DNA from: an uncultured Nitrospiraceae bacterium
Lineage (GTDB): Bacteria; Nitrospirota; Thermodesulfovibrionia; Thermodesulfovibrionales; Thermodesulfovibrionaceae
Length of the DNA stretch: 64,000 nucleotides
NCBI GenBank assembly: GCA_937139565.1
Contig: CAKZQH010000106.1
Span: 9,289 to 73,288, forward strand
Direction: 5' to 3'
Shown here: one piece after another, positions 28,936 to 36,466 of the stretch
Numbering within the stretch: the first letter of the stretch is position 1
Layout: each line of letters begins with the position of its first letter
Translations under genes and position numbers: made by a program
Notes under the pieces: generated by a model
What the model was told of the DNA's origin: nothing
What the model saw: only the letters and a program-made list of their open reading frames with translations
The model's database searches: none

Positions 28936-29489
28936 AACAAAATATAGGAGATATTGTTTTAAAGATATATGAAAACAAAGGCACAGGGCTATTATCAATT
29001 ACTTTTGAAGGGGAGAAAAATCTATTAAAAATTTATTTTAAAGATGGAGCGGTTTATCATATCTCTTTTGGAGTAAAAAAAGGCATGCAAAGCTTAAATG
29101 AAGCAAAAGATAAAGAGCCTGTCTTTTATAATTTTATCTCTAATATTGTTGTTGAAGTAACAAGTAATGATATTCCTTCAACAGATAAAATTATAGGATT
29201 TTTCAAGGAATTGAATAAGGAGATTATTTCTAGTGATAGTGTGACAATTAAGACATCGGATTTTCAAAAAATAAAAGAGTCAATAAAGATAGCATTGATT
29301 CGTCAAATTGGTCCTATAGGAGATAAAATTACAGAAAAATATATGGCTGAAAAGTGGATTCCTTCAACGCCAATATCGAAGGAGGATTTTTTAAATTTAG
29401 CCAATCTTTTAAAAGATGAAATTGAAGATATTTCAGGCAAAAAAGAATTTTTAAGTGAGGTAAACAAAATTTTGGAGGTATATAAATGA
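28932..29489 (+). CDS. DUF4388 (PatA-N-like) domain protein with C-terminal helical domain
   Basis: TGLLSIT...IYFKDGAVYH pattern; C-terminal IGPIG...LKDEI segment. Confidence 0.55.
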   Translation: MKQNIGDIVLKIYENKGTGLLSITFEGEKNLLKIYFKDGAVYHISFGVKKGMQSLNEAKDKEPVFYNFISNIVVEVTSNDIPSTDKIIGFFKELNKEIISSDSVTIKTSDFQKIKESIKIALIRQIGPIGDKITEKYMAEKWIPSTPISKEDFLNLANLLKDEIEDISGKKEFLSEVNKILEVYK

Positions 29490-30616
29490 GAGTTGAATTA
29501 GGTTTAAGAGCAGGAGTTGCTATACCTTTGTTGTTCACCTTAGTTGCTGGTATAGCTGCTCTTCTTATTTTCAATTATTTTACTCAGGTTAATTTGCTGA
29601 AAGAAGAGGAAGAAAGAAGCATAGATATGGCAGTAAATACTGCTCAAACACTTCTTGATTCAGCCACTATTCACTATCAGCAGATGGCAGCTTTTGTAGC
29701 CAGAATACCTGAGGTGCAGGAAGCTGTCAATAAGCGAGACAGAAATCGGTTAATAGAGAAATTTTTACCGAGCTTTAATTATTTAAAACAGCAATTTGGA
29801 GTTGCACAGTTTCATTTTCATATCCCACCTGCAGTATCTCTTCTTCGAATGCATGAACTTACTATTTTCGGGGACGATATATCTAAACAGCGTAAAAGTG
29901 TTGTGCATGTAGGAGAAAACAAAAAGGGAGTGAGAGGAATAGAAGCTGGAGTCGGTGGAGTAGGGTTAAGAGGAGTTGAACCAATTTTTTATAGGGATAC
30001 TTATGTAGGAAGTGTAGATTTGGGTGGAGGTTTTAAAGAAGAGTTAGAGTTGATAAAAAAAGCAATAAAAGCTGATGCCGGAGTAGTTATCAATAGAGAG
30101 ATTCTTACTGAATGGCCTGGACTTAAAGATATTAAACAAAAAATAGGAGAATGGATTCCAATTAGCTCCACATTAAAAGAACCCACTGAATTTGTAATGG
30201 AGTTTTCTCTAAAACAGGCTTCACAATCAGGAGATAAGTATCATAAGGAATATATCACTAAAGCAGGAAAAGATTTTATCGTAATTTATAGTCCATTAAA
30301 AGATTTTTCAGGTAAAAAAATTGGATTTTTATACATCGTTAAGGAAAGAGTGTTAGCTCCATCTAAAATAATAACAATGTTAGCAATTAACATAGTGGTA
30401 TACGCTATTATGCTTATTGTAATGGCAATTCTTATCGGTTACGGAATGAATAAATTTGTAATTAATCCTATAATTGCATTAACAAAATTAGCAGACGATA
30501 TATCTATGGGTAAAACTTCACAAAAAGTAGAGATTAGAGATGCAAGAGGAGAGATAGCTATTCTTGCCAAATCCATAGAGAGAATGAGAGTAACAATGAA
30601 AAAACTTCTTGAATAG
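29486..30616 (+). CDS. membrane Cache-domain sensor ending in a HAMP domain, no output domain
   Basis: TM1, QFHFHIPPAVSLLRMH...GDDISKQR...GIEAG..G..LRGV Cache pattern, TM2, PIIALTKLADDISMG...EIAILAKSIERMR then stop. Confidence 0.8.
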   Translation: MRVELGLRAGVAIPLLFTLVAGIAALLIFNYFTQVNLLKEEEERSIDMAVNTAQTLLDSATIHYQQMAAFVARIPEVQEAVNKRDRNRLIEKFLPSFNYLKQQFGVAQFHFHIPPAVSLLRMHELTIFGDDISKQRKSVVHVGENKKGVRGIEAGVGGVGLRGVEPIFYRDTYVGSVDLGGGFKEELELIKKAIKADAGVVINREILTEWPGLKDIKQKIGEWIPISSTLKEPTEFVMEFSLKQASQSGDKYHKEYITKAGKDFIVIYSPLKDFSGKKIGFLYIVKERVLAPSKIITMLAINIVVYAIMLIVMAILIGYGMNKFVINPIIALTKLADDISMGKTSQKVEIRDARGEIAILAKSIERMRVTMKKLLE

Positions 30617-30625
30617 GAGTAAAAA

Positions 30626-32824: not shown

Positions 32825-35054
32825 TTCCGAGCTTATAAAATATTTTTTAATAGAAGCTGAGGACTATCTAAATACTTTGATTGAAGGAGTAGAAGAACTC
32901 GAAAGTCGTGATTTTAATAAAGATACGGTTGAAGCTCTTTTTAGAGCTACTCATACCCTAAAAGGTTCAGCATCAATTGTAAAGCTTGATAAAATCACAA
33001 CCCTTTCTCACAAGCTTGAAGATTTTTTTGAAGCACTTTTGAATGATCAGATAGAATATAATGCCTCTTTTTTATACTATGTAAAAAAAGTAATAAATGC
33101 TATTGTAAACTTGGTAAATGAAGTTGCAGAGACAGGACAAGAAAAAAGCGAAATTGATAATGATTTGATTAAGACAATAGATGCGATTTTTGTAACTAAA
33201 CAGCTTCCCTCCCCAGAGATTATCGCCGAGCCCTTTGAAATACTTCCTGTGGTAAATACGGTCAGAATTGATTTAGGATTAGTCGAAAACATTATAACAT
33301 CCTTAGGTGAAATTCTTGTTCAGAAAAATACAATCGCCGACAAAGAAAGAGAGTTAGTTGATATCATTGAAGAAATTTCTAATAGTGGTAAGAGACTTTT
33401 AAAGGAAATAAATGATTTTTCAGAGATCTATTGGTTTACATCTCAAGAAAAAGGACAAAAAGTATTAGATAGTTTTTTCACTGATTTCAGTGATTTACAG
33501 TTCGATAGATATGAGGAATACCATATAGTTTTAAGAAAGATTCAAGAGATTACCAATGATATTACTGAAGGTATAAAGACATTAGCAAATTTTTCAGAAA
33601 ATTTATCTTTTCTATTTAAATCAATAGGGCGAGAAATAAATTACTTAAAGGATAGTTTAATTGAAGTAAGAATGATTCCAGCTGGTAAGCTCTTGCAAAG
33701 GCTTGCTGAAGCAGCAAAGGACATAGCAGAGAGTTTAGGAAAGTTAGTAGATATTGAAATAAAAGGAGCAGAAATAAAACTCGATAAGCCTATTTTTGAT
33801 GGCCTTTATGAACCTATTATTCATATTATTCGAAATGCCCTACAGCATGGTATAGAGCTTCCAGAGGAGAGAATAAAAAAGGGCAAAGAAAAAGTAGGAC
33901 ATATAAAAATAGCTGTTTACAAAGAGGGTAAAAATGTTAATATTCGGATAAAGGATGATGGTAAAGGTATAGACATTGATAAAGTAAAAGAAATAGCCCT
34001 TGAAAAAGGTTTAATTTCAGAAGAAAGATTGCCTTATATTTCTAAAGAGGAAATGCTCTCATATATTTTTGCTCCCGGATTTTCTACATCAGAGGAAGTT
34101 GATTTTCAGAGCGGCAGAGGAATGGGGCTAAATATAGTAAAAACTGCAATTTCTAAGTTGAAAGGCACTATTGAAGTTTTTTCTGAAATAGATAAAGAAA
34201 CAGATTTTGTGATTAAAATTCCTCAATCTTTGAGTGTCAGCAATCTCTTAGTTTTCCGTTCATCAAATTTGGAATATGCTATTCCTTTGAACTATGTTGA
34301 AGAAGTTCTATCAGTTGATGATTTTCCAGAATTATTAAAGGATAGATCTTTTACTCATAAAAACAGGAATATTCCAATTAAAATATTCTCTGAAATTTTT
34401 TATCCTATGAATGGTAAAAATATTACCGGAGGCTATGTAATTATCTTGAATTTCTCAGGCATTAGAAAGGGATTGGTTGTAGAGGATATTATAGGACATG
34501 AGGAAACAACCATTCATAGTTTTGGAAAATTTCTTGAGGGCCTCAGACAATATTTAGGCTATTATATCGCGAGTAAGGGTAACCCACGGTATGTTGTTGA
34601 TCCTTTGAAAATATTTGAAGAAGAATTCATGTTTGCAGCTGCAAAGGATAGAATTTTAGAAACGGTATTATATTTGGGATCTGTTTTAGTTGTTGATGAC
34701 TCAATTAGTGTTAGAAAGGCTTTGCAAAATACCTTAGAGACAAAGAAGATAAGAGTATACACTGCAAGAGATGGCTATGAGGCATTAGACATTCTTGAGA
34801 AGAAGGCGGTTGATTTGATAATAACCGATCTTGAAATGCCAGGAATGCATGGATATGAACTAATAAATAGACTAAGAAGTGACTCGAGATTTAAAGATCT
34901 GCCAATTGTGGTTCTCACCTCAAGGGGGACTAAGAAGCACGAGGAAAAGGCTATTTCCTTAGGTGCTGATGGTTATATAGTTAAACCTTTTGATGATCAG
35001 ACAATCTCTAATATTCTTTCGAAATTCGATATTACAAAAAATACTATATACTAA
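32814..35054 (+). CDS. cheA: hybrid chemotaxis histidine kinase Hpt-HATPase-CheW-REC (ChpA/PilL-like)
   Basis: [40 protein letters not shown], terminal REC ([15 protein letters not shown]). Confidence 0.93.
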
Positions 35055-36466
35055 ACTCTAAATCTTGCTGATATTTCAACAAGCTCTGTTGATGTCCCTG
35101 CAAGAGATTGGGATAGATTAGTAAGTTCTTCTGTAATTTTTGCTGTATTCTCAATAACTGATTTAACACCTTGAATGGAATTAACTTCGCCTTCTGTAAT
35201 AGCTCTTTGTTTTTGGGCTGATTCATTTATTTCCAAGATGATATCTCCAATTTTCTTGATAATAGATTCTATTTTCTCAAAAATTTCTGTACTTTGAGCA
35301 ACCATATTGGTCCCAGTTTCAACATAATTGGTTTCTTCTTCAAGGTTTTTGGTTACCATACTTGCTTCTTCCTGTATTCCCGTTATTATGTTTGCAATAT
35401 TTTGCGAAGATTTAGCTGTTCTTTCCGAAAGAGTACGGATTTCTTCAGCAATAACTACGAATCCTTTACCCTCTTCTCCTGCTCTTGCAGCTTCTATAGA
35501 AGCATTTAGAGCAAGCAAATTGGTTCTATTTGCAATTTCATTGATGAGAGTTGATATTGTTCCTATTTCCATTAATTTTTCTGAAAGAATCTTCATCCTT
35601 CTATTTATTCCCATAACTGAAGTTCTTATTAATTGCATGCTGTGAATTGTTTCGGTGACAATTTCATTACCTTTTATAATGGAATCAAGAGCTTCTTTAG
35701 AAACATTTGTTGCCACAACTGTTTTTTCACTAGTTTGGTTGGCAAGTTGATCAGCCTCTTGAATAAGAGATGCAACCTTTGCTATTTCTTCTTTTTCAAC
35801 CTCTAAACCTTTCTGAAGTTTCTGAATAATTTCATTTAAAACAGCACTTTTTTCTCCTATGTCTGCTGCCGAGTTTTTAACTTCTCCAACCAATTCGCTT
35901 AGTCCATCAGCCATGAGATTAAATGCGTCTGCCATAGAGCCAAACACATCGGGCGTTACTTCAGCTCTTTTTGTTAGGTCTCCCTCAGATGCAGCAGTCA
36001 TAATTTGAAGAAACTTAATTATATTTGTTTGCATTTCTTTCTTTTCTTCTTCTGTCTGAATTGACGTTGACAGTCTATCCATCATTAAATTAAAGGCATC
36101 TCCTATCTTTTGAAACTCATCACCTGTTTTAAGTTTTATTCTTTTTTCAAAATTACCCATTCTAATTGCTTCTATTGCTTCTTCAAATGTTGCCAGAGGT
36201 GATACTATTTGTTTTTTGAACCATACAAAATTAAAGGCAACGATGGCGATTAATGTTATTCCAAATATGGCTAAAACTGGGGTAAACTTTAGAAGGCTGT
36301 TTATAATTCCTATTCTTTTCATTATAAATTCTTCACCATATATTTGATATCCAGTAATTATTAAGCCAGATAGAAGAATAACTGTTGAAACAATGATTGA
36401 TAGTGTGAATATTATAAGAAATTTTCTATAAAGTCCCTTTGGTTTTTTTTCAGCCTTAATAGGCAT
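35051..36466 (-). CDS. methyl-accepting chemotaxis protein (PilJ-like), minimal extracytoplasmic loop
   Basis: Two close TMs, two HAMPs, [30 protein letters not shown]. Confidence 0.92.

Follow-up and report, generated by a model that had tools for sequence, protein, structure and literature searches.

An output-less Cache-HAMP receptor and its constant small partner in a pilus-type chemosensory cluster of Nitrospirota

Organization of the receptor locus

A stretch of 64,000 nucleotides (nt) on contig C106 of a 1.99-Mb Thermodesulfovibrio-like assembly (uncultured Nitrospiraceae bacterium, GenBank GCA_937139565.1), referred to here as the window, carries a chemosensory gene cluster with two adjoining genes that are the subject of this analysis: one for a membrane receptor without an output domain and, just upstream of it, one for a small protein. 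All genome-wide counts given below refer to this assembly. The receptor gene (29486–30616, + strand) encodes 376 amino acids (aa), comprising a first transmembrane (TM) segment (hydrophobic residues ~5–35, nt 29498–29590), a periplasmic dCache_3 sensor (residues 40–287, nt 29603–30346; Pfam, E = 1.4e-24), a second hydrophobic TM segment (residues ~289–327, nt 30350–30466), and a C-terminal HAMP domain (residues 323–376, nt 30452–30613). The Pfam HAMP match (E = 2.5e-5) covers residues 323–369, and the stop codon follows seven residues past it. The open reading frames of the cluster were located exactly where the original prediction had placed them. That prediction, made from the sequence without database searches, had described this gene as TM-Cache-TM-HAMP with a clean stop and the next gene as having its own Shine–Dalgarno sequence; the Pfam domains and the seven-residue tail confirmed the first point, and a GGAG motif 8 nt before the ATG at 30626 confirmed the second. 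Among the 12 HAMP proteins of the genome, the receptor is the only one without an output; the other 11 have at least 233 aa downstream of the HAMP domain, apart from one that is interrupted by the end of its contig.

The upstream gene (28932–29489, + strand), which the coordinates of the original prediction had left out, encodes a putative cytosolic adaptor of 185 aa. Its stop codon overlaps the start codon of the receptor gene (ATGA), and a GGAGG motif lies 8 nt 5' of the receptor start. The protein can be divided into a PATAN-like N-terminal domain (residues 1–104, nt 28932–29243; sub-threshold DUF4388 match of 16.9 bits) and a four-helix, STAC-like C-terminal domain (residues 106–185, nt 29247–29486), which corresponds to Pfam DUF8082 judging from the PF26309 annotation precomputed on its homologues, and whose fold was predicted with AlphaFold2. 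Small proteins of this kind and output-less HAMP proteins are each represented just once in the genome.

Downstream of the receptor gene, the cluster encodes a 462-aa response regulator (REC-PATAN; 30626–32014, + strand) with a receiver (REC) domain (E = 6.3e-23), an acidic linker, and a C-terminal DUF4388 match of 17.8 bits; a CheY/PilH-like single-domain REC of 121 aa (32061–32426, + strand; E = 4.8e-26); a CheW-like coupling protein of 137 aa (32411–32824, + strand; E = 3.5e-17); and a hybrid CheA-like kinase of 746 aa (32814–35054, + strand), in which Pfam identified Hpt, HATPase_c, CheW, and REC domains. Although the DUF4388 match of REC-PATAN is weak in the window, its syntenic orthologues score 45.5, 65.8, and 97.1 bits, so that the protein belongs to the family by orthology. 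The single-domain REC is the only copy of its type in the genome, with orthologues both in Che clusters and in triads with the PATAN and Cache-HAMP genes, and orthologues of the hybrid CheA are widespread in the phylum. Convergent with cheA is the gene of a methyl-accepting chemotaxis protein (MCP) of 471 aa (35051–36466, − strand), with TM segments at residues ~12–43 and ~54–85, a HAMP domain (E = 7.5e-16), a weak match to a second HAMP domain (18.3 bits, E = 0.0066), and a signalling domain (MCPsignal, E = 1.8e-34). As had been predicted, its two TM segments are so close (inter-TM loop of at most ~20 aa) that it lacks a ligand-binding domain, and the cluster encodes no other MCP, with nine MCPsignal matches in the whole genome; of the two HAMP domains and full signalling domain claimed for it, the first HAMP and the signalling domain are clear and the second HAMP is doubtful.

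The gene content of the cluster is that of the pilus class: CheW, an MCP, a hybrid CheA-REC, and two receivers, of which one has an additional output domain. Its relatives keep the order REC-PATAN, REC, CheW, MCP, CheA; neither CheR nor CheB was seen in the cluster. The Pil/Chp architecture assigned to it at the outset (REC, CheW, Hpt-kinase-CheW-REC, and MCP) was recovered by Pfam component by component. The same set of two receivers, CheW, MCP, and hybrid CheA-REC makes up the Pil-Chp system of Pseudomonas (PilG, PilH, PilI, PilJ, and ChpA), and the likeness in the relatives extends to the order REC-x, REC, CheW, MCP, CheA. In contrast to Pil-Chp, the first regulator here bears a PATAN domain, the ChpA-like kinase has a single Hpt domain, and the MCP in this genus is without the large periplasmic domain of PilJ. 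The cyanobacterial Tax/Pil systems (PixG/PixH/PixI/PixJ/PixL) likewise cluster a PATAN regulator, a CheY-like REC, CheW, an MCP, and a hybrid CheA, although the domain order here is REC-PATAN rather than the PATAN-REC of cyanobacterial PatA, and the putative second PATAN protein here has a STAC-like domain and no REC.

Conservation of the receptor and of its pairing

When receptor homologues were searched for among 5.8 billion proteins, the output-less form was found in 72 further clusters (375–381 aa, 35–68% identity) from Thermodesulfovibrio, Dissulfurispiraceae, and other Nitrospirota. This rules out the loss of an output domain in this genome only, which the original prediction had named as a possible refutation. 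The pair is also carried by cultured T. yellowstonii, T. hydrogeniphilus, and strains N1, TK110, and 3907-1M. In an alignment of 12 diverse members, the C-terminus uniformly reads '...MKKLLE' and the HAMP domain is invariant at many positions. Within the family, HAMP is the best-conserved part of the receptor, with 58–88% identity compared with 35–68% for the whole protein, which fits a conserved interaction surface, and a search with the HAMP region alone returned 64 candidates, every one of them from the receptor family. The protein search also recovered a variant of 275–292 aa with a shorter sensor. In some Thermodesulfovibrio genomes, a 275-aa variant with a single Cache-like periplasmic domain occupies the same position (L020:10001–10828 and proteins P0052–P0066); its HAMP domain is 80–83% identical, indicating a swap or deletion of the sensor domain within the genus.

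The proteins of the window's cluster were mapped onto 32 related loci from species-representative genomes, and a phylum sample of 251 genomes was surveyed, 20 of which carry the receptor. A homologue of the 185-aa protein adjoins the receptor in all 20 genomes, directly in 18 of them, across a 129-aa open reading frame (ORF) in one, and across a 3.5-kb insertion in another. The small PATAN gene lies directly 5' of the receptor gene in every orthologous locus with upstream sequence, and the ATGA overlap of the pair recurs at L004–L006 and L020. In Thermodesulfovibrio (L001–L006, L009, and L020), the entire cluster is syntenic, MCP included; in other Nitrospirota (L007–L019 and L021–L023), just the CheY-like REC, the 185-aa homologue, and the Cache-HAMP gene are kept together, amid unrelated flanking genes (TPR, ThiC, radical SAM, multihaem cytochromes, and a PMT-type glycosyltransferase). 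The constant partner of the receptor is the small adaptor gene just upstream of it, not the chemoreceptor. At one locus (L017:5864–11119), an EAL-domain gene, a cheW, and a 4HB-MCP gene stand between the PATAN-STAC and Cache-HAMP genes, which may link the module to cyclic di-GMP turnover. At another (L011:9501–9890), the 129-aa ORF between the two genes shows faint receiver-like similarity (23% to the CheA REC).

The pairing was also examined at 14 loci with weaker homologues of the 185-aa protein in genomes without this Cache receptor. At 12 of these distant loci, the small PATAN gene directly adjoins the gene of a two-TM receptor of 293–398 aa that ends in HAMP. According to Pfam, this receptor is dCache_3-HAMP at four loci (L049, L050, L054, and L055) and Tll0287-like-HAMP at seven (L053, L056–L058, and L060–L062), and at the twelfth (L059), its ORF is split in two. 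The gene order of the distant pairs varies, with the receptor first at four loci. Independent gene calls with precomputed Pfam annotation likewise placed a Tll0287-HAMP gene beside that of the small protein, where the flanking genes are unrelated and Che genes are absent. The retention of adjacency through a sensor swap and an order flip is a classical signature of products that work together. The two distant loci without an adjoining receptor (L051 and L052) both belong to genus g10. The split Cache-HAMP gene of genome G259 (L059:6656–7868) consists of ORFs of 260 and 161 aa, which could reflect a frameshift or pseudogene formation. In addition, G259 has an intact Tll0287-HAMP gene, which heads the Che cluster of this genome together with a PATAN-STAC-like gene of its own (L078).

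Resemblance to the archaeal Af1503–Af1502 pair

Since 2006, Af1503 of Archaeoglobus fulgidus has served as the structural prototype of the HAMP domain; to our knowledge, no output has been found for output-less HAMP receptors, and coupling to small STAC proteins is the only lead so far. According to the CASP11 account by Korycinski, Hartmann, and Lupas (PMC4834066), receptors of the Af1503 type are shortened at the C-terminus, so that HAMP is their sole cytosolic part, and they are linked, both in the genome and in translation, to small STAC proteins such as Af1502. When the receptor of the window was compared with all PDB sequences, 16 matches were obtained at E ≤ 0.01, and all were the Af1503 HAMP domain or chimeras of it (best E = 7.6e-5). 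The HAMP domain of the receptor is ~47% identical to that of Af1503 over 51 aa, and the two proteins terminate at the same position. Furthermore, Af1503 (SIERLRRSLK) and all of the output-less receptors collected (e.g., SIERMRVTMKK, SFDRMRVSLK, and AFTRMKVSL) share the signature x-R-[ML]-[RK]-x-S in the second amphipathic helix (AS2) of HAMP, whereas the MCPs encoded in these clusters show the canonical [FL]-N-[ED]-x-[MI] at this position. Judged by its sequence, the receptor is a conserved bacterial relative of archaeal Af1503.

The resemblance extends to the organization of the pair. As in Af1503/Af1502 (Hulko et al. 2006; PDB 2L7H, 4CQ4, and 5A1Q), an extracellular sensor, here the dCache_3 domain of residues 40–287, lies between two TM helices at the N-terminus; HAMP is the only cytosolic domain, ends at AS2, and is conserved in this form, with the AS2 signature embedded in EI.ILAKSIER.R; and the receptor is coupled genomically and translationally to a small protein of probable STAC type, which is predicted to form a four-helix, two-hairpin bundle with [IL]GPx(x)[AG] between helices h1 and h2. 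The system described here differs in being bacterial (Nitrospirota), in having the reverse gene order, with the partner upstream, and in the fusion of the STAC-like domain to a PATAN-like domain of ~100 aa. In addition, the sensor is dCache_3 (Tll0287-like or a single Cache domain in relatives), and the genes stand in a chemosensory cluster or beside a CheY-like gene rather than in an MgtE-type transporter operon.

In Af1502 (PDB 5A1Q), two α-hairpins joined by a nine-residue linker make up a four-helix bundle, with the motif LGPx(x)A between h1 and h2; the STAC domain of Af1502, defined by association with solute transporters and two-component systems, also occurs in CbrA, and Af1502 behaves as a singleton in searches according to its authors (PMC4834066). 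The AlphaFold2 model of the 185-aa protein (pLDDT 91) shows an N-terminal α/β domain and a C-terminal bundle. For residues 106–185 (pLDDT 92, pTM 0.81), helices were predicted at positions 3–21, 24–35, 45–56, and 62–78 of the segment, with a nine-residue linker at 36–44, which reproduces the four helices, two hairpins, and ~9-residue linker by which STAC is recognized. The only invariant residues of the C-terminal domain are Gly-Pro (G127-P128), which stand within [ILV]GP[IAVL][GA] exactly between h1 and h2. When a profile of this domain was compared with 177,635 PDB sequences, AF1502 (5A1Q) ranked fifth, aligned on h1-GP-h2 (KKLLDELKKEIGPIAKIFLNKAMES), with E = 0.37. In CbrA (SLC5-STAC-PAS-kinase), STAC is part of the same polypeptide as a transporter and a kinase, whereas here it would be part of a separate protein beside a HAMP receptor and be fused to PATAN. 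Cryo-EM of CbrA revealed that the four-helix STAC bundle docks under the membrane domain, and a relay of the conformational state of that domain was proposed (PMC13022988).

A literature search returned no publication on Pfam DUF8082 and no link between STAC and PATAN. No HAMP-PATAN or HAMP-STAC fusion was present among the best 150 of 1,139 DUF8082 representatives, all of which were at most 479 aa in length. At one locus (L070:4183–6440), a stand-alone PatA_N (PATAN) gene is followed by the gene of a 479-aa protein with three DUF8082 repeats, indicating that PATAN and the STAC-like domain also occur as separate adjoining genes.

Proposed signalling route and competing explanations

With moderate confidence, we propose that the two genes encode a dedicated pair in which an Af1503-type Cache-HAMP receptor signals via a PATAN-STAC adaptor, likely to the pilus motor. 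The conserved residues R121, D130, R136, E153, and R162 of the periplasmic dCache_3 domain suggest a charged ligand. Its binding to this domain would change the packing of the HAMP bundle; the STAC-like bundle would dock on HAMP or on the membrane-proximal surface and read the HAMP state; and the PATAN-like domain would then be released to, or withheld from, its target. By analogy with the PatA-type regulators of cyanobacteria, the likeliest target would be the type IV pilus motor or platform, PilB/PilC. Control of a PATAN protein by direct binding to a sensor, without phosphotransfer, has a precedent in the photoreceptor PixD, which holds and releases PixE, although the sensor here is a transmembrane Cache-HAMP protein rather than a soluble BLUF or GAF photoreceptor. 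In the PatA-type regulators of Synechocystis, PATAN is the output domain, binds the N-domains of PilB1 and PilC, and suffices on its own to reverse phototaxis, with binding to PilB/PilC known only for PixE and PixG (bioRxiv 10.1101/2021.06.11.447907). The branch from Cache-HAMP to PATAN-STAC would need no phosphotransfer, and a kinase branch from the MCP through CheW and CheA to REC-PATAN and REC would serve the same output; because the cluster's own regulator also bears a PATAN domain, the two branches probably converge. In those lineages in which a CheY-like REC accompanies the pair, the three genes look like a PatA-type regulator divided over two genes, together with its sensor. The genome contains two PilB-type and two PilT-type ATPase genes. 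On contig C11 (31440–34109), two PilT-type ATPase genes adjoin one another and are followed by a gene for a 138-aa receiver.

The pair is not independent of the Che system, in that a hybrid CheA orthologue is present in essentially all pair genomes. Within the order to which the window belongs, it was found in 14 of 15 pair genomes versus ~8 of ~42 genomes without the pair, by a hand count that is not corrected for phylogeny. In the sole exception, genome G259, cheA is cut by the contig end, and we rejected this genome as an instance of a pair without CheA because of this assembly artefact. In four genera, the pair is located within the Che cluster. In g5, g14, and G259, PATAN-type and Tll0287-HAMP genes stand ahead of REC-PATAN, in the same position as in the window, and the MCP has a sensor of its own in g5 and g14. 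In G002 and G009, the series AccC-ThiE-[REC-PATAN]-REC-CheW-CheA/MCP lacks the pair, which is found at another locus (L018 and L007); this synteny indicates that the pair of Thermodesulfovibrio was inserted between thiE and the first Che gene.

Across the genomes compared, the sensor gene does not co-vary with a sensor-less transducer, and this bears on the central claim of the original prediction: that the Cache-HAMP protein and the sensor-less MCP form a bipartite receptor that communicates through TM/HAMP contacts. Such a receptor would supply ligand input to CheA, much as sensory rhodopsin II, a separate membrane sensor, passes its signal through TM contacts to the MCP-like transducer HtrII. 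In Thermodesulfovibrio, both genes do occur in one syntenic cluster in which the MCP has no periplasmic domain, and the pair co-occurs with this Che system at the genome level. Each of 12 receptor genomes has one clear orthologue of the window's MCP (33–66% identity against a background of 25–30%), but this orthologue is sensor-less (459–480 aa) only in Thermodesulfovibrio and G002, and elsewhere it comprises 567–639 aa with its own sensor (sCache_2 in G009, sCache_3 in G001 and G052, 4HB in G162, and Tll0287-like in G250). Such sensor-bearing MCPs coexist with the output-less receptor in the same cluster (g5 and g14) or in the same genome (G009 and family f18), which makes the receptor an added module and not a substitute for a missing MCP sensor. 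Moreover, the receptor lies far from the MCP in most lineages (f18, G002, and G009), including G002, in which the MCP is itself sensor-less, and some pairs have no Che genes nearby. Since the Cache-HAMP gene thus occurs independently of the MCP, which the original prediction had itself named as grounds for refutation, and since comparative genomics, in contrast to the rhodopsin system, ties the sensor to a cytosolic partner rather than to the MCP, we regard a bipartite chemoreceptor as improbable. The two membrane proteins also lack sequence similarity in their TM and HAMP regions; BLASTP yielded nothing there (best E = 0.48) that would point to heterodimers or to a recent fission. Genus g10, in which the signalling domain of the orthologous MCP is joined to a Tll0287-HAMP region and no output-less receptor adjoins, speaks for the bipartite arrangement, but its MCP sensor is only 31–32% identical to the output-less Tll0287 receptors, compared with 28% for an unrelated Tll0287 protein, so that an origin of the g10 protein by fusion was dismissed for want of specific similarity. 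The second proposal made at the outset, in which a neighbouring DUF4388 protein receives the signal of the orphan HAMP, survives in a modified form: the partner is the small PATAN-like/DUF8082 protein encoded upstream, not the REC-DUF4388 protein encoded downstream. Far less probable than a bipartite receptor, to the point of being negligible, is the reading of the gene as a functionless leftover from the decay of a Cache-HAMP-MCP or kinase gene whose output domain has been lost. The closest output-bearing relatives are indeed dCache_3-HAMP-MCPs (636–647 aa, 26–30% identity), but the length and the C-terminus are constant over the 72 further clusters, down to 35% identity, on which basis a gene remnant was rejected; in addition, HAMP is the best-conserved part of the receptor, and the same architecture recurs with other sensor domains.

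A more serious competitor, although we still consider it unlikely, accepts the receptor and PATAN-STAC protein as a real pair and places its output elsewhere than at the pilus motor: in a transporter, as Lupas and co-workers proposed for STAC, in a cell polarity or small-GTPase module, or in the recruitment of Che proteins, for example through tethering of REC-PATAN or CheA to the receptor by the PATAN-STAC protein. The definition of STAC through solute transporters and two-component systems (PMC4834066), the side-by-side occurrence of separate PatA_N and DUF8082-repeat genes at L070, and the varied neighbours of stand-alone pairs (cytochromes, CsgG/FecR, Lon/HSP20, and a glycosyltransferase) are consistent with this explanation, as is the absence of clear pilus clusters around the PilB-like genes of this genome. 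On the other hand, no transporter is conserved beside the pairs examined, the recurrent companions are the CheY-like REC and the REC-PATAN/CheW/CheA cluster, and binding to PilB/PilC is the only experimentally known function of PATAN.

Several points weigh against signalling from the receptor through a PATAN-STAC adaptor to the pilus, some concerning the target and others the adaptor itself. The pilus target is an analogy drawn from cyanobacteria; the PilB-like genes (on contigs C13 and C48) lie outside obvious pilus clusters; Thermodesulfovibrio is described as flagellated, and we know of no documented pilus-based motility in this anaerobic thermophile. Gene adjacency is evidence of a functional link, not of direct contact. 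In genus g10, PATAN-STAC heads the cluster without an adjoining output-less receptor, although these genomes may have one elsewhere, and the MCP itself carries Tll0287-HAMP, suggesting that STAC may also, or instead, read the HAMP domain of an MCP, which would preserve part of the bipartite idea. As for the C-terminal domain, the profile match to AF1502 (E = 0.37) is weak, so that the STAC assignment is not statistically secure, and Foldseek, run with the whole 185-aa model and with the C-terminal domain, found no PDB match at E ≤ 0.001, with 5A1Q outside the top 50, small helical bundles being a weak case for this method. A scan of the domain against a local copy of Pfam at E ≤ 10 gave nothing meaningful and no match to PF26309 or a STAC model. 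Given these results beside a fitting motif and fold, the identity of the C-terminal domain as STAC is probable, not proven. As for the N-terminal domain, the 16.9 bits for DUF4388 (PF14332) compare with a Pfam cut-off of 25, and hhalign to the PATAN domain of REC-PATAN gave only E = 0.0011 with a probability of 20% over 39 columns (TG.L...F..G motif). Of 22 members of the small-protein family, 14 match DUF4388 at E ≤ 0.01, the best at 3.6e-5, and none of them reaches the cut-off. Both of these putative assignments draw on the sequence motif, the predicted fold, the genomic context, and scores below threshold.

Effector-less HAMP receptors that are coupled to STAC proteins have been published before; a literature search found no bacterial STAC-like–PATAN fusions, no sensor swapping, and no integration into a pilus-type chemosensory cluster. 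What the window adds is a pair physically inserted in a Che cluster that also encodes another PATAN regulator, in a genus from which thermophilic strains have been cultured. With a STAC-like domain fused to a PATAN-like domain inside such a cluster, the matter of the Af1503 output becomes a specific question of HAMP-STAC and PATAN-PilB/PilC binding, which can be addressed with thermostable proteins from a genus with cultured species. If the proposed route is correct, it would constitute a phosphorylation-independent input to chemosensory pathways. A broader generalization, which we put forward only tentatively, is that STAC bundles are general readers of the HAMP state and that, combined with PATAN, they form a kinase-independent chemosensory branch, in which an effector-less Af1503-type receptor, on binding its ligand, directly gates a PATAN adaptor that acts on the type IV pilus motor or the polarity machinery; in some lineages, such as g10, the HAMP read in this way may belong to an MCP of the array. 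Such a branch would operate in parallel with the phosphorelay through CheA and would give Af1503-like receptors the output that they have lacked since 2006. An orthologous MCP with a Tll0287-like sensor (a haem-type, PAS-like domain) occurs in G250 (L079:4218–6128) and also in G134; in both, PATAN-STAC heads the cluster without an adjoining output-less receptor.

Upstream of the pair lie accC (26982–28337, + strand) and thiE (28324–28935, + strand), which overlap by 14 nt, and thiE overlaps the small PATAN-STAC gene by 4 nt; through these overlaps, the signalling pair is packed seamlessly behind the housekeeping genes efp-accB-accC-thiE. A weak hairpin with a T-tract (within 31986–32035), followed by a TG-extended −10-like site (32008–32035), precedes the single-domain REC gene and may split the transcription of the cluster, and TTGACA-17-TAATAT precedes the MCP gene; the promoter and terminator scan of which such sites are part was at chance level (47 versus 43.7 and 6 versus 5.7). 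In one sublineage of Thermodesulfovibrio (L005, L006, and also G086), the cluster is without the single-domain REC, and the CheA protein comprises 582 aa and has no C-terminal receiver.

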